Of a DNA stretch of 64,000 bases, positions 29,795-39,476 are shown piece after piece; within the stretch, counting starts at the first letter, position 1; every line of letters begins with the position of its first letter. A model generated the notes under the pieces. The model searched no databases and was not told the origin of the DNA. It was given only the letters and a program-made list of their open reading frames with translations. Both the position numbers and the translations under genes were made by a program. Where the stretch lies: the NCBI GenBank assembly GCA_026003495.1, contig BPHK01000001.1:940579-1004578 (forward strand), in the 5' to 3' direction. The DNA is from Candidatus Kapaibacterium sp. (GTDB lineage: Bacteria > Bacteroidota > Ignavibacteria > Kapaibacteriales > NICIL-2).

Positions 29795-29868
29795 CGGAGT
29801 GTAGCGCAGCCCGGTAGCGCACACCTTTGGGGTGGGTGTGGTCGCGGGTTCAAATCCCGCCACTCCGA
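29795..29868 (+). tRNA. tRNA-Pro (anticodon GGG)
   Basis: Hand-folded cloverleaf: acceptor CGGAGTG/CACTCCG, D-stem GCGC/GCGC, anticodon stem CACCT/GGGTG with loop TTGGGGT, T-arm GCGGG-TTCAAAT-CCCGC, discriminator A; 74 nt, no encoded CCA. Confidence 0.85.
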
Positions 29869-29957
29869 CTGGTGGCGCCTGCAGCAATGCACGCGCCATT
29901 TTTGTTCGGAGGCTAACTTTGCTGCCGGAACATGGTTTCAGTTGGAGCATCCACGCA

Positions 29958-31907
29958 GTGAACCTTTCGCGTTTTGGTTACCTCCGCGTTGCAGCATGCA
30001 GTCCTGCAGTGCGCGTTGCTGATGTCGAGTTCAACTGTCGAGCAATCGCAGAGGCATATCGTGCGCTTCGCAGTGTTGGGGTGCAGATTGCAGTGTTTCC
30101 AGAAATGGCGACCGTTGGGTATACGTGCGCTGATTTAGTGTTGCATTCGCCCCTGCTGGATGCGTCCGATCGGGGACTGTACGCGCTTGCAACGCTGGTA
30201 CGTTCGCTCGGTGGTGTGCTCGCCATCGGTGCACCAATCCGTGCATGGGGCCGACTCTACAACTGTGCGGTTGTCATTAGTAGCAGCGGAATTGTGGGGG
30301 TTGTCCCCAAGCAATTCATCCCGAACTACGGAGAGTACTACGAGCAGCGTTGGTTTGCGCGACCGAGCGGGCAGCTGCCATCGCAGGTAGCAATCGCCGG
30401 CCAACAGGTGCCGTTTGGTCCAGGGCTTGTCTTCGAGGCACGCGTCGGTGAGATGCACGCAGCAACGATTGGTGTCGAGCTGTGCGAAGACCTATGGGCC
30501 CCAGCACCGCCGAGCGAAGCGTTAGCGTGCGCGGGAGCAGACGTGTTGCTCAATCTTTCCGCTAGCAATGAAGTGCTCGGGAAAGCGGACTATCGGCGCG
30601 ACTTAGTGCGAATGCAGTCGGCGCGGTGTATTGCTGGCTATGTCTATGCCTCTGCCGGTGCGGGTGAATCAACAACGGACACTGTCTATAGCGGCCACTG
30701 CATTATTGCAGAAAACGGCGTGATCCTCGGAGAGAATCGTTCGTTTTCGTTCGACACTGAGTGGGTTATGGCTGATCTCGATTGTGAGCGGTTGCAGTAC
30801 GACCGTCGCCGGATTGCGACGTTCGGACAGCAAGCGATGCCCCCGCTGCAGCGGATGCAAGTAGCAATTCCTGCGCTTGAAGGAGAGCGGCCTCATCGCG
30901 TCATTGATGCGTCTCCTTTTGTGCCGGCCAATCCATCCAAGCGCGCCGAACGATGCCAGGAGATAGCAGCAATTCAAGAAACAGCGCTCGCAAAGCGTCT
31001 GCTCCATACTGGGCTGCGTGCTGTTGTTCTCGGACTTTCGGGAGGACTCGACTCAGCATTAGCACTCTTGGTGAGTGTGGGGGCATTCGACCGACTCGGC
31101 TACGATCGCAAGGGAATTCATGCCGTGATATTGCCTGGACCTGGTACGTCCGAACGAACACGCCAGCAGGCTGAAGCACTCGCTCGTGCGTTGGGTGCCA
31201 CCGTGCAAATCATTTCCATCACTGATGCTGTTGAACACCATCTCGATGCTCTTGGTCACACCGGTGAGCACGATGTTCTCTTCGAGAATGCACAAGCACG
31301 AGAGCGCACGCAGATTCTCATGGACCTTTGCCACAAACACCACGCTCTCATGGTCGGTACCAGCGATTTATCCGAGCTTGCCCTCGGCTGGACAACGTAC
31401 GGCGGTGACCACATGAGCATGTATGGTGTCAACGCAGGCGTGCCAAAGACACTCGTTCGGTATATCATCGAGTGGTGGGCCCAGGCACTCGGCGATGCAA
31501 AAGCAAAAGACGCGCTGGCAGCAATTTTACAAACGCCGATTAGTCCAGAATTGCTGCCGCCCAATCCCGATGGCTCAATTGTGCAGCGCACTGAAGAAGT
31601 GCTCGGACCGTACCAAGTTCACGACTTTTTCCTGTACAACCTCATCCGCTGGGGATATGCTCCTGAGAAATTACTTGAGCTTGCGGTCTGGGCGTTCGAG
31701 GGGAAATACGCCCGCAAGGAACTGGACCAGTGGCTGTCAACGTTCCTTGATCGCTTCTTTGCCAACCAATTCAAACGGTCATGCTTACCAGATGGTCCCA
31801 AAGTTGGGTCGGTTGCTCTTTCCCCACGGGCGGATTGGCGTATGCCAAGCGACGCTCTTCCGGTGGTGTGGCTCGCCAGTGGCGGGGAAATGATGCCGCC
31901 GTCGTAG
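29958..31907 (+). CDS. nadE: glutamine-dependent NAD+ synthetase (nitrilase domain + NAD synthetase domain)
   Basis: Track ORF 29832..31907 overlaps tRNA-Pro, so the in-frame GTG at 29958 (VNLSRFGYLRVAACSPAV) is taken as start; N-terminal CN-hydrolase domain (VFPEMATVGY...) and C-terminal PP-loop ATPase (VVLGLSGGLDSAL). Confidence 0.85.
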   Translation: MNLSRFGYLRVAACSPAVRVADVEFNCRAIAEAYRALRSVGVQIAVFPEMATVGYTCADLVLHSPLLDASDRGLYALATLVRSLGGVLAIGAPIRAWGRLYNCAVVISSSGIVGVVPKQFIPNYGEYYEQRWFARPSGQLPSQVAIAGQQVPFGPGLVFEARVGEMHAATIGVELCEDLWAPAPPSEALACAGADVLLNLSASNEVLGKADYRRDLVRMQSARCIAGYVYASAGAGESTTDTVYSGHCIIAENGVILGENRSFSFDTEWVMADLDCERLQYDRRRIATFGQQAMPPLQRMQVAIPALEGERPHRVIDASPFVPANPSKRAERCQEIAAIQETALAKRLLHTGLRAVVLGLSGGLDSALALLVSVGAFDRLGYDRKGIHAVILPGPGTSERTRQQAEALARALGATVQIISITDAVEHHLDALGHTGEHDVLFENAQARERTQILMDLCHKHHALMVGTSDLSELALGWTTYGGDHMSMYGVNAGVPKTLVRYIIEWWAQALGDAKAKDALAAILQTPISPELLPPNPDGSIVQRTEEVLGPYQVHDFFLYNLIRWGYAPEKLLELAVWAFEGKYARKELDQWLSTFLDRFFANQFKRSCLPDGPKVGSVALSPRADWRMPSDALPVVWLASGGEMMPPS

Positions 31908-31991
31908 ATTTGCGGCGTGGGTACGAGGAGAGTCAACTAATCATCGGCAATGCCGATAGTTCTTATTACCGAATAACGGTGAAGGTGCTCA

Positions 31992-32714
31992 ATGAAACGA
32001 GCTATCTCTTCTCTGCCAACGGATGCTATTCGCGTGGCGATTGCCGATGACCACGAGCTCGCGCGTGTAGGACTCTACCGCATGCTCTCGAGCGATAGTA
32101 GCGTCGAAATTGTCGGCGAAGCTTCTGATGGGGACCAGCTTCTTGCACTTGTCGAAAAACAGAAACCTGATGTGGTTTTTCTCGACATCTTCATGCCACG
32201 CCGCAATGGATTGGAAACTGCGCGAGAACTGCGCTCACGTATTCCGACGGGCAAACCCTACATCATCATGCTTACAACGTTCGAGGACTATTCCTACCTT
32301 CAGCAAGCCTTGGCAATCGGAGCGGATGGGTACCTTTCCAAAGATGTCAGCCGCCAGGAATTGCTCTCGTCACTACGATCAGTGGTCAAAGGGGAGCGAG
32401 TTTTCTCGCGTTCGATTCTGGCGCTCATGCAGGGCATGCGCTCCAAACACTCGGCGGAATCGCTCTCAACGGTCACGCTGACAAAGCGCGAAGAGGAAAT
32501 CCTTGAGCTTGTCGCCCAAGGATTGACAAGTAATGAAATCGCTGATCGCCTCTTCATCAGTCCTCGGACCGTTGAGACGCACCGTGCGCATTTGATGGAG
32601 AAGCTCGGTGCAAAAAATGCAGCCGCACTGGTGCGTTATGCAATCCTGCATTCAATCTACTTTCCCGGTCACGGTCGCCCCTCGAATGCCTCCTCTGCGG
32701 AGAGCGCTTGCTAA
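31992..32714 (+). CDS. two-component response regulator, NarL/LuxR family (REC + HTH_LuxR)
   Basis: 240 aa; REC domain (VAIADDHELARVG...DVVFLDIFMPRRNGLE) and C-terminal LuxR HTH (LTKREEEILELVAQGLTSNEIADRLFISPRTVETH). Confidence 0.85.
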   Translation: MKRAISSLPTDAIRVAIADDHELARVGLYRMLSSDSSVEIVGEASDGDQLLALVEKQKPDVVFLDIFMPRRNGLETARELRSRIPTGKPYIIMLTTFEDYSYLQQALAIGADGYLSKDVSRQELLSSLRSVVKGERVFSRSILALMQGMRSKHSAESLSTVTLTKREEEILELVAQGLTSNEIADRLFISPRTVETHRAHLMEKLGAKNAAALVRYAILHSIYFPGHGRPSNASSAESAC

Positions 32715-32767
32715 AGTAGCTACGTACGGTGTAGGGCAGCGCGAAAGAAATTACGTAGTAGTACGTA

Positions 32768-33889
32768 TTGCTGGCCAGGAGGGAAACCGCCAAATTTGCA
32801 ACCGTTCTGCAGAGCACATTGCGTAGGCACTCGATGAGTCTGCAAGAGGCTAACTCTGACGACGAGAGTTTCACTCCTGAGATAGGTTTAGCGATGCGCG
32901 TTCGAGATCGGCGGTATCACGTGCTCATAGTCATTCTCTTGTTGATCTGGGGTCCCCCTCAAGGGTGGGCTGATGGCAATGTCGGCATTGGTACGACGTC
33001 TCCCGATACATCGGCATTGTTGGAGCTTCGCTCGGTTCGGAGCGGGCTGCTTATCCCACGAATGACGACTGCACAGCGGGATGCGATTATTCTTCCGGCA
33101 AAGAGTCTCCTGATTTTCAACACTACAACCAATCGCTTCGAGTACAACGACGGCACCCCCGCTGCACCGAATTGGGTGCCATTCCTCACCGGAAGTGGCA
33201 GTTTTTGGTCGTTGCAAGGTATCCCAAGGTGTTGATTCTGACGGCTCGGAATCGAGCAATTACAATCAAATGCATATTCACAAGCAAAGGTTCCGTCATA
33301 TGCAGTGGGGCTTTCTATGTCTGGCGCGATTTTCTCAATCGCGGCTCCCTTACCAACAGTGGGCTTATCGAGGTGGGGCAGCCATGAACCAACGGTTGTG
33401 CCAATGCCAACCCGAGTCTAATCCTGCCCGCTGGTGCACAAGGGCAACCCAAGCTGCTGCGTGGTTATAGAGCACCGGTCCGTGGTTTCTTCCTCAACCA
33501 TGCATCGAACATCGGCGGGGCAAGTGTCAATAGCAGCGGCGTCCTCGATCTCCGCGCGGATGGTCGCTCGGAATCTCCATTTGCTATCGTTGGCTCTGGG
33601 AGTGCAATTTTAGTCACTGTACCTACAGCGCGGCTTCGCATCGCGAACGCTTCGCAGCTCAATGTTGATGGTTCCAGCCATCTGGTCGTTTCGAGCACGT
33701 GGCAACCCGCGGCGTTGACCATTGACTCTGGTTCGACACTCCGTATCAGTGCAACGGGAACACCGGGACGCTTTTCGTTGCTCGACTTATCCATAATGGA
33801 TTTTGTGGGTATGAACTTAACACTGCACTGTTCCTGCTCAATGCGATGTATGAATGCGGCACTACGGTCCGCTATCGTGGATCGTAGCT
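32768..33889 (+). pseudogene. probable remnant of a secreted surface / fibre-like protein gene, disrupted by a frame change near 33200 and an in-frame TGA at 33385
   Basis: Frame-2 ORF 32768..33235 carries a signal peptide and the motif GNVGIGTTSPDTSALLEL...GLLIPRMTTAQRDAIILPAKSLLIFNTTTNRFEYNDGTPAAPNWVPF, which resembles the N-terminal modules of Bacteroidota tail-fibre-like surface proteins. Frame 1 then holds a 168-codon stop-free stretch (33388..33889) with beta-helix-like sequence (ILVTVPTARLRIANASQLNVDGSSHLVVSSTWQPAALTIDSGSTLRISATG), but with no start codon and no C-terminal part. Confidence 0.3.
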
Positions 33890-34316
33890 AACCCAGTCCT
33901 CCAGGCTACTGCTGCAGAGCCGAACCATCGCTACGGTATTCTCGAAACATAGGGAGGTAATAAGCGAGCCAATGGCGACGTGCACGTTGGCTGCGGACTG
34001 TTAGTCAATACCTGCTCAACTCCGCATACCATCTCGATGGTGATTATACGCTCACAGTGCACCATGCCGACACTGCTTTCACCACGATTTGGCAAGATTC
34101 TGCATTTGCTGATTGCCAGTCTCTGTCAGAGGTTCCTGGGCGCTTCCGCCATGTTTAGCAGCACGCGTCATCGTTGACCAAAGCACCAACGGTGCTGCTT
34201 AGAAATTCGCTGCAGATGCGATAGGTCCTTCCGCTGACAGGCTTTCATTTGCATTTGGGCGTGATGTTACGCTCGAGTATTAGGCTCGGCAGGAACTGGA
34301 GCTTCGGTCGCGGCAG

Positions 34317-35021
34317 GTGCAACATGCTGAGCAACTAGCGCTGGAAGCGAATGCATCGAAATCAGCATTCATACAGCGGCTAACGCGCTATCTACGTTCG
34401 TCGCTGGTGACTACGCTCGAAGGAGTGCACCACATGGTACTACAGATGGATTCCAGCAACGAGCGACAGACGCGTTTTGTCAAACTTGCCAATGAAAGCT
34501 CAGACCGCTTATTTGCCATCGTCAGTGATTTGCTCGATGTCGCTGGTGAACATTCTGTCAACGGTCCTGATACGGTCGAACTGGGACGTATCCTCCATCA
34601 GGCTCAGCAGACCTACCGCACATGGGGCGGAAGCTGCATCTTCATCGAACGGAGTGTCGAACACGGAACACGCCTTGCTGCCGAAGAACGCGTTGTCGCC
34701 GATGCATTTGCAAATCTTTTCGCTGCGCTAACCGCTGGGACGCGAAGCGGTGCGATTGAGCTAACGACAATTATCAATGCCCAAGAACAGGTGCTCGAAG
34801 TGCAAGTGCTCGCTCCGTATAGCCTCGAGGTTGCAGAGCTGATCAGAGTATTCAACCGCTCGCAGCAGCACTTGGTGGAAGCACTCGCACACGACCGCGA
34901 TGACATCCTCTTCCGGTTCGGGATTGCTGCATCGCAGATACGCCGCGTTGGCGGTACGTTCAGCGTCGAGACGCTCGGTCAGGAAGGGAATGTCGCCCTG
35001 ATCACTCTCCCGCTTGCATGA
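34317..35021 (+). CDS. truncated histidine-kinase-like protein (DHp + degenerate HATPase_c, no sensor or TM, canonical phospho-acceptor His absent)
   Basis: 234 aa, GTG start with an in-frame TAG at 34281; a HisKA-like helix reads EANASKSAFIQRLTRYLRSSL where SHELRTPL is expected (only later His are in EGVHHM); the C-terminal region GIAASQIRRVGGTFSVETLGQEGNVALITLPL matches the HK ATP-lid/G2 region but with degenerate D/G boxes. Confidence 0.5.
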   Translation: MQHAEQLALEANASKSAFIQRLTRYLRSSLVTTLEGVHHMVLQMDSSNERQTRFVKLANESSDRLFAIVSDLLDVAGEHSVNGPDTVELGRILHQAQQTYRTWGGSCIFIERSVEHGTRLAAEERVVADAFANLFAALTAGTRSGAIELTTIINAQEQVLEVQVLAPYSLEVAELIRVFNRSQQHLVEALAHDRDDILFRFGIAASQIRRVGGTFSVETLGQEGNVALITLPLA

Positions 35022-35126
35022 AAAAGTGGCGCTCGGGTCCAGCACCACGAGCGCCACGTACTCCATGACCCTCACACAGACGCTTGGCAAGCGAAGGGAC
35101 CGATCCTCCGCATGCCAATTTCTGCA

Positions 35127-38100
35127 CTATCGAACGATGAGCAACTGTCGTGTTATGCGAACAGGACCGCTTTCGTAGCGGACGAAATAGAGTCCGCTGC
35201 TCATGTCTGCAATCGGCACGTCGAGTTGATAGGTGCCTGCGGAAAGCTCACCATCGAGTACTGTCCGCACCGGATTACCGAGTGCATCGTAGAAGCGAAT
35301 GCTTGTGGGTGCATCGAAGCCAACACCGAATCGAATTGTGACCGCATCACTTGTCGCTGGGTGGGGGCTAACGTCCACGATTGAGAACGTTGTCGTGGAG
35401 ACTTTGACAAAGCGTCCGTCAATGAAGCAAGTCGTCGGCAGCAAACTATCGCCGAGCACAGTAGGAATTACGCACCGCCGCTCACTGTTGCCGGCACCAT
35501 ATGGGATGCATTCGGCGATCGCAGTTGTAGCGAAGCGCTGCTCAGCAAGATCGCTAATGAGCACAGTAAAGCGGAGCGTTGCAACGGCGCCGTTGGCAGC
35601 AATTGGCGTCTGCCCGCGACCTTGAATGAGAAGCTCCGCAGTACTCGTTGTGCCATCGAGTGATTCTTGCGCTGTTAGTTGCCAAGTTGCATCAAGCACT
35701 TCTCCGCGCGTGATGCTGTTGGGCACGTAGAGGAGCTGCTTTGCGTTGTAACGAACGCGAATGTCGAATCCGTACACTTGCGCTCCTCCCCAGTTGAGAG
35801 AACGGACTTGCACTTGAGCGCCTGCATCGTTTCCGCTTCGGAAGTTGAACAGTGGGGAATCGAATGTCGTCCGTACTTCGATTGGGATAACGTACCCTAC
35901 CCCGCGGAGCTCAGCGGTATCGGCATCGCCGCCACGATATTCGACGCGAATAAATGCGCTATAGCCACGTGGTTGGTCAGGGAGGAATCGTACCGCAATT
36001 GGGCGTGTTTGCCCAGCCGATACCACCAGCGGATTGGCAGGCGTTGGCGGAGATTCGAGTGCGAAGTACGCAGCATCGGGTCCGAGGATTGTTGCACCGA
36101 TGACTTCGACGTCAGACGCGGGAGTGCCGGCAGGTGCGGTATTGGTCACTGTGGCGGCACCGAGGGGTTGATCACACGTGGTAACCGAGCCAAAGTCGTA
36201 TCCTTCCAGCGTCGGTTGGTTGACGGTATAGCCATAGCCAATTAGCTCGACGATCGTCTCTGCTTGCCCGGTCGGCTCTGGGACGGGAGGCTCGGCGTTG
36301 TGGAGGATACGCACAAGCGCTTTCCGCTCTCCTGTCCCTGATGGGCGAAATTGAACTGCCAAGAGCGCAGGCGCAGCACCAATCGGAAGTGTGGCATCTT
36401 GGAGGGCATCGAGCAACTGGAAATCCTCCGGGTAGAGGTTCCGATTTGGATCGCGCGTCGGGAGCAGCTCAACGGCATAAACGCGGAGGTCTGCTGATTG
36501 GCTCGTATTCGTGATGGTAACAAATTGTTCGGTGTTGCCGGCTTGGCTTTGGGTCGTTGTCCCCACCAGGATTGGTGTGCGGAAGATCGCACCCGTTGCC
36601 TCGATTTTTTCGAGGTAACCAAATGCAGTCAGTGCATCCGACCGGGTACCGACGCCAGTGAAGTCACCCAGGAGGCGACTTGTCAGATCAAATTCCGCTT
36701 GGGGTGTGCAGGCGATCTGAACGCGAACGACGTCTTGACCGTTGGGGAAGAGTGTAAACGGTGGCTGACGATCGGCACCGACAATGCGGAAATTCTGCTC
36801 GTTGGCAGGAAGGTACACAGCGGTGCATTGCACTTGATCTTGACCGTCGTTGCGAACGAGGCCATTGAGCACTTTTGTGGTACCGAGCCGAACGCGTCCC
36901 CAGCTGTTTCCAATGACAATTGGCCCTGGAGAGATTGATTGGCCTTTCCACTCCGACCATGGCTTGTCGCCTCCAGAGCCGGGCGCATCGCTCATGAAAC
37001 GGACGGTAATGGAGAAGGTGCTATCGTTTGTCGGGGCAAAACACATTTCCTTGAGAAAGACTTCGCCGCCCGGCGGAATCGTTATCGGCAGTGGCGGATC
37101 GGTCGGGTCGGTGAGACTAAATGGTGGCTGAATCGTCGAGCGATCGATGTCGGTGATTGTCAGTGTATCGGTGCCAGGGTTGCGGATGCGTAGTCCACGA
37201 GCTAACTGCTGAGAATGGCAGCGGGATTGACCCGATGGGACAGTTCCTGCGTCCCAATCATCGACGATGATGTGTGGCTGGATGCCACGCCCGAGAACCT
37301 GTACAGCGAACGGCGCACATTGCTCGACGACCAAGAGGGAATCCTCATCGCGCTCATTGTCGCGAACATGCTCAGTTTGGGGCGTGTAGCGGAGGCGGAC
37401 TTGAATGCTTTGTCGCGGATACAGTGCTAAGCCACCCGGTGGAATTGTCGGCTCCACAATTGCGAATGCTGACCCCTTTTTCAGACGGAGGTCCGTGATG
37501 AGAAATGTTGAATCTGCATTGTTCGTAATGGTTGCAGTTATCTCCGTAGATCGTCCGACACGAACGTTCCCGGCATCAATAGGATTGGGGCGGATCGAAA
37601 CCTTCGGTGCAACCCAGAAGACGCTGTCATAGCTGAAGTTGAGTGCACGATCGCCGACGTAGAAGTACGCTTGTGCATCTTTGGTTTTATCTATGACCCG
37701 CAGGCGGAATTTGACGATGCTGTTTTTCTGATCTTGCGGAAGGATGTTATCCGTGATGAGATTGCCATCAGCCTCGAGTAATTCAATTGCGTAGTTGAAC
37801 GATGGCTTGCCCTCGACAAAGTCGATGGCATTGATTCCGGTTCCAATATGGTTGAGGGTGTCGTTGATTGGAAAATCTTGTCCTGTCTCACGTGCAGTGT
37901 AGATGTAGTCACCGCATTCTTGTTCGCGGCTTAGTGGCGGTGGAATGGTATCGAATTCATCGAGTCTGCGGTAGGCGGTGGCAGCAGGCCACCCGTAGGA
38001 ATCGAAGCTGCCCCAACCGTAGATGTAGCCACCAAACGGTGCGTTTCCTTCGATCAGGTGCGCACCGTTGTTGACGAAGAGACGGGCGTAGTGAAAGTTC

Positions 38101-39476
38101 GTGCCAGGGATGCGGTTGCCGAGAATGTCCGGAGCAAGGGTAGTTACAGGGACGCCGTCAACCTTGATCGAGCGAAGGTCTTTCTGCTCTGGATCGTTGA
38201 TATCAGCAGATACGATCAAGTTGAAACGGTGGCGACTATAAGCGGGATTCGATGGGGCTTGGAAAATAGTAGCCTTCGTGTACTGCTCGATGGGGACAAC
38301 GTAGATCATGAATGGGTCGAACATGTTATTGTTGTCCCATTCCGCGGAGGCGGAGTACTGCATCAGGAAAAATGGTTTGTTTGATTTCCAGACCGACATG
38401 CCGCGTACACCGGTCGCTTGGCCAGGGCCAGTGACGACGAGCCCTGCATCCGGGAGCGAGCGTACCTCGCCACGCTTGAGACCTGGCATGATGAATTCTT
38501 CGAGCTTCTGTTTGGTCCTGAAATCGTACGTCGTACACACGATGTTCGTCCCATCCTGGAGAGCGACGACACGGAAAAAGTCCCCATAACCGCCACGTTC
38601 ATACTCGATGCTGACGTACGATCGCCCCCACATCGACGTCGGCGGGATCATTTCGATCATATGGTCACGGCCATTGAAAATATCGAAGCTTGGTACCATC
38701 GTCCGTTGGTGATAGCTAATGAACCCAATTGGTTTGTTTGCTCGGACGATGCTACCGGAAAGATCGAATTCCCCTCGAGTTGTGCCGTCTCCTTGGACAA
38801 GGTAGCACTGGCCAGGCTGTAATGTCACTGTCCAGGTTGCGCCGTACCGGCGTCCCTTTTCCGTCCGTGCTGATGTTATTCCGTGATCCCCGATATTCGG
38901 TTTGCGAAGCTCAATACTGACACGTGTATCCCTGTAGGCTGCAACAATAGCAAAACCACCTTTCCAGTTTCGGAATTCGCGAAAGTCTGGCCAGCCGAGG
39001 TGGATGTACTCATTGCCCCACGATTGGACCGGAATTGCTAAGTAACCATCAGAACTCACCTGCTTTCCATTGTAAACGTAAACAGAAACTGGGTCATCTG
39101 CGACAATCCGTACTGCAAGATCGAGCGGAACTTCACTTTCCTCTGCCTCTGGCATCGGCACGTCACGCAACGTCAGCACTGTAACGCGCATAGCTTGCAC
39201 GTTGAAGACTTTCTGGAAGCCCAGGCCTGGGATTTCGTACCGAAATCGGGTATTCCGTGATGACGTTACGTAGATCTCCCGGGCTGTTACCGGTTGCTGA
39301 GGACTATCGTTGAGCGGAAAGCAGAAATAAAATTCTTTCCCTTGCGAGCCGTTCGTCAAGAGCTCAGCGGCGGTGGGAATGCGTCCCGTACCCCGGGGTG
39401 CACGAAGCTCCTGAGCACTCGCAGCACTGTAGAGCAGGAGTGTCGCAATGGCCCAATGAGCAGCATTTCGAATCAT
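35127..39476 (-). CDS. very large secreted cell-surface protein with C-terminal T9SS sorting domain (function unknown)
   Basis: 1449 aa; signal peptide MIRNAAHWAIATLLLYSAASAQE; no catalytic motif recognised; the C-terminal about 85 aa (FSIVDVSPHPATSDAVTIRFGVGFDAPTSIRFYDALGNPVRTVLDGELSAGTYQLDVPIADMSSGLYFVRYESGPVRITRQLLIVR) resemble a Por/T9SS CTD. Confidence 0.75.
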   Translation of the reverse strand: MIRNAAHWAIATLLLYSAASAQELRAPRGTGRIPTAAELLTNGSQGKEFYFCFPLNDSPQQPVTAREIYVTSSRNTRFRYEIPGLGFQKVFNVQAMRVTVLTLRDVPMPEAEESEVPLDLAVRIVADDPVSVYVYNGKQVSSDGYLAIPVQSWGNEYIHLGWPDFREFRNWKGGFAIVAAYRDTRVSIELRKPNIGDHGITSARTEKGRRYGATWTVTLQPGQCYLVQGDGTTRGEFDLSGSIVRANKPIGFISYHQRTMVPSFDIFNGRDHMIEMIPPTSMWGRSYVSIEYERGGYGDFFRVVALQDGTNIVCTTYDFRTKQKLEEFIMPGLKRGEVRSLPDAGLVVTGPGQATGVRGMSVWKSNKPFFLMQYSASAEWDNNNMFDPFMIYVVPIEQYTKATIFQAPSNPAYSRHRFNLIVSADINDPEQKDLRSIKVDGVPVTTLAPDILGNRIPGTNFHYARLFVNNGAHLIEGNAPFGGYIYGWGSFDSYGWPAATAYRRLDEFDTIPPPLSREQECGDYIYTARETGQDFPINDTLNHIGTGINAIDFVEGKPSFNYAIELLEADGNLITDNILPQDQKNSIVKFRLRVIDKTKDAQAYFYVGDRALNFSYDSVFWVAPKVSIRPNPIDAGNVRVGRSTEITATITNNADSTFLITDLRLKKGSAFAIVEPTIPPGGLALYPRQSIQVRLRYTPQTEHVRDNERDEDSLLVVEQCAPFAVQVLGRGIQPHIIVDDWDAGTVPSGQSRCHSQQLARGLRIRNPGTDTLTITDIDRSTIQPPFSLTDPTDPPLPITIPPGGEVFLKEMCFAPTNDSTFSITVRFMSDAPGSGGDKPWSEWKGQSISPGPIVIGNSWGRVRLGTTKVLNGLVRNDGQDQVQCTAVYLPANEQNFRIVGADRQPPFTLFPNGQDVVRVQIACTPQAEFDLTSRLLGDFTGVGTRSDALTAFGYLEKIEATGAIFRTPILVGTTTQSQAGNTEQFVTITNTSQSADLRVYAVELLPTRDPNRNLYPEDFQLLDALQDATLPIGAAPALLAVQFRPSGTGERKALVRILHNAEPPVPEPTGQAETIVELIGYGYTVNQPTLEGYDFGSVTTCDQPLGAATVTNTAPAGTPASDVEVIGATILGPDAAYFALESPPTPANPLVVSAGQTRPIAVRFLPDQPRGYSAFIRVEYRGGDADTAELRGVGYVIPIEVRTTFDSPLFNFRSGNDAGAQVQVRSLNWGGAQVYGFDIRVRYNAKQLLYVPNSITRGEVLDATWQLTAQESLDGTTSTAELLIQGRGQTPIAANGAVATLRFTVLISDLAEQRFATTAIAECIPYGAGNSERRCVIPTVLGDSLLPTTCFIDGRFVKVSTTTFSIVDVSPHPATSDAVTIRFGVGFDAPTSIRFYDALGNPVRTVLDGELSAGTYQLDVPIADMSSGLYFVRYESGPVRITRQLLIVR

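Follow-up and report, generated by a model that had tools for sequence, protein, structure and literature searches.

An open reading frame (ORF) at positions 34317–35021 of a 64,000-nt stretch of Candidatus Kapaibacterium DNA (hereafter the window, meaning that stretch at its full length) had been flagged as encoding a truncated histidine-kinase-like protein. We found that this ORF is most probably the non-functional 3΄ relic of a longer gene, here called g7, which encodes a conserved pseudo-kinase in relatives and recently became a pseudogene in this genome. The ORF was present as originally described, with 234 amino acids (aa) from a GTG and an in-frame stop (TAG, 34281–34283) located 12 codons 5΄ of its start, and the genome's own annotation lists it as KatS3mg040_0816, a 'hypothetical protein' of 195 aa that begins at the ATG at 34434. 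Together with the 1.5 kb upstream of it, the ORF is to be read as debris of a locus of seven genes (g1–g7) rather than a novel small signalling protein.

Origin of the ORF and collapse of its locus

The ORF and the parts of g7 to which it belongs were located as follows.

34317–35021, + strand: flagged ORF, 234 aa from GTG, codons ~472–710 of g7
34257–35021, + strand: g7 remnant, codons ~452–710 of a gene for a CHASE–transmembrane–PAS–DHp–CA-like protein, 97.4% DNA identity to contig L001 of the nearest relative, HR20
34317–34556, + strand: DHp-like helical hairpin, residues ~1–80, with Arg24 (34386–34388) at the acceptor-His position and helices at residues 2–43 and 49–76 of the structural model
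34569–35018, + strand: CA-like alpha/beta domain, residues ~85–234, with the N, G1 and G2 ATP-binding motifs absent

Scans of genome and metagenome collections yielded 14 further g7 loci, and in at least nine Kapabacteria loci (L005, L007–L012, L016 and L017) g7 was intact as an uninterrupted ORF of 710–719 aa. Its layout consists of an N-terminal transmembrane (TM) helix, a CHASE domain (Pfam, 1e-20), a second TM helix, a PAS domain and the DHp-like plus CA-like module; the intact product is accordingly predicted to be an inner-membrane protein with a periplasmic CHASE domain. Orthologues matched the whole flagged ORF with 62–96% aa identity (E 1e-81 to 1e-156), and since they matched at E values of 1e-81 to 1e-137, the ORF is not a chance frame. 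Among 5.8 billion proteins, only four close homologues were found, one of which was KatS3mg040_0816 itself, the rest being longer.

The homology between the window and HR20 started abruptly at 34257 (position 444 of the HR20 contig), and homology to L011, L012 and L005 likewise began at this position. Upstream of it, the HR20 g7 frame stays open as far as the contig end, across a PAS domain and a TM segment, whereas codons 1–451, and with them the full TM–CHASE–TM–PAS architecture, are deleted in the window. The stop at 34281–34283 reads CAG (Gln) in relatives, and this Gln-to-stop change is unique to the window. The earlier statement that no sensor or TM domain exists was therefore correct for this genome, but the upstream stop is not the cause by itself, as a deletion of ~6.5 kb joins a fragment of g3 to g7 codon ~452. 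Between the intact regulator gene that opens the locus and the flagged ORF, we identified the following remnants.

32834–33235, + strand: g1 remnant, codons 1 to ~128 plus a short tail in another frame that runs to a stop
33242–33394, + strand: g2 remnant, the last ~42 codons (33259–33384), overlapping the first 32 codons of g3; from blastn and tblastn against L011, L012 and L005
33422–34153, + strand: g3 remnant, codons ~185–435; from pairwise alignment to L011 1955–2689
34158–34248, + strand: second g3 fragment, 90 bp; from blastn to L012 3323–3414 and L005 3314–3401

Together, the debris of g1–g7 spans positions 32834–34316. The window was 96.4% identical to HR20 contig L022 up to position 33219, where homology ended within g1. 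The larger g3 remnant has lost single nucleotides at 33813, 33886 and 34038, carries one in-frame Ser-to-stop change, differs from the aligned L011 segment by three single-base gaps and 71 mismatches, and harbors no + strand ORF of more than 65 aa. The second g3 fragment is fused to g7 at about 34243–34256, which marks the junction of the ~6.5-kb deletion, and g4, g5 and g6 are absent from the window. In total, we counted four deletions (~10–11 kb of the ~14-kb locus), three 1-nt frameshifts and two nonsense codons. An Rfam scan of positions 32600–35200 gave no match at E ≤ 0.1, so that the 1.1 kb without ORFs does not correspond to any known RNA gene. HR20, which shares 96–97% DNA identity with the window in the regulator and g7 regions, has a 1015-aa g1 and a g7 frame that is open from the second TM helix onward; the collapse therefore occurred after the split from HR20.

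These data show that deletions have taken the bulk of g1, g2 and g3, the whole of g4–g6 and the first ~451 codons of g7, and that the CAG-to-TAG change shuts the g7 frame nine codons past the deletion junction, leaving a remnant with no membrane anchor, CHASE or PAS domain. The frame of the remnant would still be open because the damage is recent. Given the loss of the sensor, TM and PAS regions together with the collapse of the locus, we infer that the remnant is most likely non-functional.

In intact genomes, the gene order was GyrA, a TrxB-like protein, a major facilitator superfamily protein, NadE, a NarL-type regulator, g1–g6, g7 and a convergent gene for a 1449-aa type IX secretion system (T9SS) protein. 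The part from the regulator through g1–g6 and g7 to the convergent T9SS gene was kept across genomes that are 62–95% identical, and regulator orthologues were found directly 5΄ of g1 in L018, L019, L020 and L022. Intact g1 encodes ~950–1040 aa with a PTL_trimer match, g2 164–168 aa, g3 ~737 aa, g4 ~710 aa, g5 444 aa with a T9SS sorting tail, and g6 450 aa of an OmpA-like protein; apart from PTL_trimer (precomputed), Pfam and NCBIfam returned nothing informative for g1–g4. Genes g1–g6 would encode envelope or secreted proteins. The elements that flank the debris in the window are as follows.

31992–32714, + strand: intact NarL/FixJ-type response regulator, REC plus GerE helix-turn-helix, 240 aa (Response_reg 3.5e-27, GerE 8.8e-23)
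35127–39476, – strand: convergent T9SS-sorted surface protein, 1449 aa, 72–91% aa identity and in the same position in all loci examined
35026–35048, – strand: terminator-like GC-rich hairpin with a T-run, within the 105 bp that separate the g7 remnant from the T9SS gene, from a consensus scan only

The hairpin is a possible shared or bidirectional terminator. The regulator had been regarded as a neighbour of the flagged ORF, but it lies 1.6 kb upstream beyond the gene debris, and the link between the two is their membership of the same conserved locus. With respect to the flanks, the ORF of the NAD synthetase at 29832–31907 (CN_hydrolase plus NAD_synthase, 691 aa) is probably over-extended at its 5΄ end, as orthologues have 642–649 aa and the HR20 gene aligned from about position 29958. 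We also noted that synonymous divergence (dS) from HR20 was uneven when window positions 29958–37136 were compared with contigs L022 and L001, with values of 0.235 (regulator) and 0.239 (T9SS gene) as opposed to 0.066–0.087 across NadE and the remnants of g1 and g7, which suggests mosaic ancestry or recombination.

Acceptor and ATP-binding motifs of the g7 module

We examined the module for the residues on which histidine kinase activity depends. A sequence-profile search of PDB, using the flagged ORF and its three closest homologues as the query, matched one kinase, GacS (7z8n, E 0.005), over the DHp part only, and in this alignment 'NMSHEIRTPL' of GacS fell on 'RLTRYLRSSL', placing Arg24 (CGC, 34386–34388) at the acceptor His. 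A MAFFT alignment with seven canonical kinases again put Arg24 in the acceptor column, in agreement with the replacement of His by Arg proposed originally. Likewise, the ATP-binding boxes were degenerate as predicted: in alignment with the canonical kinases, the N-box position reads 'NLFAALTAG' with no Asn, the G1 position 'VLAPYSLEV' with no DxGxG, and the G2 position 'DRDDILFRFGIAAS' with no GxGxG.

Domain searches gave the same picture. The Pfam HisKA match of the flagged ORF scored 20.7 bits (E 4e-4), below the cut-off of 26.9, and covered only profile positions 18–61, downstream of the H-box, while no HisKA_3, HisKA_2 or HATPase_c (PF02518) match was obtained in the ORF at E ≤ 10; NCBIfam reported weak partial similarity to PhoR, CreC and NblS-type kinases. 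Two His-bearing relatives, P0010 and P0008, exceeded the HisKA cut-off (44.7 and 30.2 bits, respectively). As nothing in the PDB profile search matched the CA-like part, a comparison of folds was needed. The modelled ORF has a combination characteristic of class I sensor kinases, namely a predicted DHp helical hairpin followed by an alpha/beta CA (Bergerat) fold, and the fold matches of the module included DivL (4q20, among the top matches), RetS (6dk7) and GacS (7z8n). From the missing motifs we infer that neither the ORF nor the g7 family is likely to bind ATP.

The same states were seen beyond the window. The acceptor position is Arg in every Kapabacteria orthologue except L006, which has Gly and is a contig of 2.25x coverage, and the non-canonical N, G1 and G2 regions are common to all Kapabacteria orthologues. 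Comparison of the orthologues gave pairwise ratios of nonsynonymous to synonymous substitution rates (dN/dS) of 0.04–0.12 for the DHp/CA-like module among intact copies where dS was measurable, indicating strong purifying selection on the module, which is therefore functional without kinase chemistry. Thus, the missing His and the degenerate boxes do not indicate decay but are the fixed and selected state of the family. Intact g7 would then signal through partner binding instead of autophosphorylation, and its likeliest partner would be the NarL-type regulator encoded first in the same conserved locus.

Selection, expression signals and competing explanations

We compared the changes on the terminal branch of the window copy with those on intact branches. 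On the window branch of g7 we counted 8 nonsynonymous changes for 7 synonymous ones, whereas three intact branches had 9 and 27, respectively, and the window-specific changes near the 5΄ end comprise the Gln-to-stop change and two further replacements. Too little time has passed since the truncation for dN/dS to tell whether selection has been relaxed. Moreover, g7 has been broken independently in another hot-spring lineage (L013, 8582–10705; L014, 3877–5999; L002, 8301–10423; L015, 133–963), in which g1–g6 upstream are intact. A shared TGA is present at g7 codon 371 in L013, a CHASE frameshift and a Trp-to-stop change are added to this TGA in L014 and L002, and the frame is disrupted 5΄ of the module in L015, where the C-terminal module showed a dN/dS of 1.0–1.4 (18 nonsynonymous and 4 synonymous changes compared with intact branches, P = 3e-5).

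With regard to expression, a scan of positions 31900–35200 for sigma-70 promoters and terminators gave counts at the level of shuffled sequences and nothing 5΄ of the ORF, and is uninformative for this phylum. AGGAG or GGAGG was found upstream of the starts of 5% of the 37 window ORFs of at least 300 codons, compared with 8% at internal control codons, which is consistent with translation initiation in this organism not depending on Shine-Dalgarno sequences. A GAAGGAG located 8 nt 5΄ of the ATG at 34434 had been considered as a new ribosome-binding site, a lead sharpened by a window-specific ATG-to-GTG (Met-to-Val) change; this candidate was dropped because AGGAG/GGAGG is not enriched at window starts.

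Several observations weigh against a non-functional relic. Nonsynonymous changes were in excess on the window branch, but not significantly so (Fisher's exact test, P = 0.10 overall and 0.18 within the ORF). Neither a frameshift nor a stop interrupts the 234 codons of the ORF, whereas four lesions were found in the 732-bp remnant of g3, and the g3 rate would predict ~3.8 lesions per 705 bp (probability of none, ~0.02); this could mean weak retention of the ORF, or that g3 was broken earlier. In addition, the consensus scan found no + strand terminator-like site between the regulator gene and the remnant, so that, in combination with the lack of Shine-Dalgarno dependence, read-through transcription and translation are possible. 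Finally, the regulator is intact with a dN/dS of 0.06 against HR20, and a binding partner thus still exists.

The open frame, the intact regulator and the missing + strand terminator-like site would be expected if the remnant were still made and, as a free DHp/CA-like module with no sensor, formed dimers and bound or titrated the NarL-type regulator, or the DHp domain of another kinase, in a constitutive manner. There is precedent for an active truncated kinase in the ChrS pseudokinase, a frameshift-truncated protein that forms heterodimers with HrrS and causes a phenotype stronger than that of a chrS deletion (PMC9491836), and both DivL (PMC4211667) and RetS (PMC8498467) act through binding without catalysis. 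However, the genes presumably served by the locus (g1–g6) have been destroyed in the same genome, and the 5΄ end of the remnant has accumulated the stop at 34281 together with three of the eight nonsynonymous changes specific to the window. The ratio of nonsynonymous to synonymous changes on the window branch is above that on the intact branches, and the broken g7 of L015 goes on to drift neutrally at its C-terminus. Neither start candidate, GTG 34317 or ATG 34434, is conserved, and initiation at the latter would drop most of DHp helix 1. We therefore regard a functional stump as unlikely. It had been proposed that the protein was either a dead remnant or an inactive binder; the first alternative fits the window copy, and the second fits the intact family.

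It is less probable still that the organism has an intact locus and that the deletions and stops arose by mis-assembly or sequencing error, even though the source is a metagenome-assembled genome (Candidatus Kapaibacterium KatS3mg040, a single 2.19-Mb contig) and close relatives carry the locus intact. Nine lesions of three kinds occur within 1.5 kb, which one mis-join cannot yield, whereas the flanking 649-aa NadE, 240-aa regulator and 1449-aa T9SS ORFs are intact, and the flanks aligned with HR20 (96.4% and 94.0% DNA identity) contain only two gaps each.

An active non-canonical kinase or phosphotransferase with H38 or H39 of EGVHHM (34428–34433) as the acceptor can practically be dismissed. 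H38 is kept in every intact Kapabacteria orthologue, 14 residues (~4 helical turns) past the acceptor column on the same helix, but both residues lie outside that column, which holds Arg24, and Gln occupies the position of H38 in L002, in L015 and in 138 of the 181 aligned members of the wider family. With no HisKA_3 or HATPase_c signal and no N, G1 or G2 box, ATP-dependent autophosphorylation is not expected. The outcome that was to refute the original reading, a downstream His at the acceptor of a HisKA_3-type domain with intact boxes, was not observed.

The wider family and known kinase-derived signallers

An exhaustive profile search found ~55 further cluster representatives at 50% identity, each of ~720–745 aa, that match the whole module with E values from 1e-72 to 1e-18, and a word-indexed search seeded with one of these representatives retrieved 201 proteins at E ≤ 1e-30. 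The named sources of the 201 were Kapaibacterium, Ignavibacteria, Bacteroidota and 'FCB group', and their precomputed Pfam domains were CHASE, PAS and HisKA, never HATPase_c. In a sample of 181 aligned members, which is biased toward the His-bearing seed, the acceptor His was kept in 148 (consensus LSHQLRNSLTG) and replaced by L, F, R, D, E, M, Q or A in the other 33. The family consensus contains no canonical residue at the N, G1 and G2 positions. Most members have no public name, the others being called 'CHASE domain-containing' or 'PAS domain S-box', and we found no description of the family in the literature searched.

Two Ignavibacteria-like, His-bearing loci (L023, 86–12202; L024, 1–14417) are collinear with the Kapabacteria genes from g3 to g7 at 26–36% aa identity. 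The order in both is g3–g4–g5–(WD40)–g6–(single-domain REC)–g7, with the REC gene directly 5΄ of g7, and their g7 has the acceptor His and no ATP motifs; in L024, a complete TPR–HisKA–HATPase_c kinase follows directly 3΄ of g7. By analogy, this cluster looks like a phosphorelay with a sensor-coupled phosphotransferase of the PhyT/ChpT kind. Single-domain REC genes were absent from the Kapabacteria loci.

Several known proteins resemble g7 in part. PhyT (PhyP) of Sphingomonas melonis, a phosphotransferase of kinase origin, is a kinase-like protein predicted to be anchored in the membrane, in which a periplasmic sensor is combined with a DHp domain and an ATPase domain that has degenerated (PMC5898713). 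Its partner is a single-domain receiver, and the g7 relatives of L023 and L024 may have such a partner too, to judge from their adjacent REC gene. However, PhyT has an HRxxN motif of the HisKA_2 type in which the His is kept, whereas the Kapabacteria clade and the flagged ORF have Arg; the predicted sensor of g7 consists of CHASE and PAS, and the window copy has lost sensor, TM and PAS regions alike. PhyT, ChpT of Caulobacter and Spo0B of Bacillus combine a DHp His with a degenerate or non-binding CA-like domain (PMC5898713; PMC3433190), a layout like that of the His-bearing g7 of L023 and L024, and ChpT and Spo0B are dimeric histidine phosphotransferases derived from kinases. The absence of all ATP motifs from the ORF is consistent with a CA-like domain of this non-ATP-binding kind, although, unlike these three proteins, the ORF and its clade have Arg in place of the phosphorylatable His.

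The loss of the acceptor is shared with the pseudo-histidine kinase DivL of Caulobacter, in which the acceptor residue is non-phosphorylatable across orthologues, PAS domains lie upstream, and a response regulator is bound without catalysis (PMC4211667). DivL nevertheless has Tyr where g7 has Arg, retains the N, G1, F and G2 boxes that g7 does not have, and is intact and essential, whereas the window copy is a truncated remnant. RetS of Pseudomonas, a kinase-like protein that targets a second signalling protein, GacS, by way of its DHp interface (PMC8498467), is likewise comparable, GacS being the only PDB sequence match of the ORF profile; RetS, however, is a hybrid kinase with receiver domains, and the Kapabacteria locus encodes no partner kinase. 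With regard to an ordinary pseudogene in a decaying operon, the window copy shares the lesions of several kinds at one locus, the intact close orthologues and the raised branch ratio, and does not differ from it in any respect, except that g7 encoded a pseudo-enzyme even before its decay.

The parent family thus belongs to the known kinase-derived signallers that are not kinases (PhyT, ChpT, Spo0B, DivL and RetS), from which it is set apart by a CHASE plus PAS sensor, by having lost the His repeatedly and by its constant location at a conserved envelope- and T9SS-linked cluster. By analogy with these systems, the g7 family is a candidate for a sensor-gated phosphotransferase of the PhyT/ChpT kind that has repeatedly turned into a His-less pseudo-kinase. 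A further proposal, that the family is an undescribed group of CHASE-coupled, kinase-derived binding signallers in Kapabacteria and Ignavibacteria-like bacteria and that an expressed stump modulates the regulator constitutively, appears doubtful; if true, the stump would parallel in nature the ChrS pseudokinase that arose by laboratory evolution.

For the genome studied here, these results indicate that KatS3mg040_0816 should be read as part of the debris of its locus. They also call for caution, in that the absence of an acceptor His and of ATP-binding boxes need not mean decay, since a whole family is conserved in this state. The g7 family, with its conserved position at an OmpA- and T9SS-linked cluster, could help in studying how two-component proteins become pseudo-enzymes.

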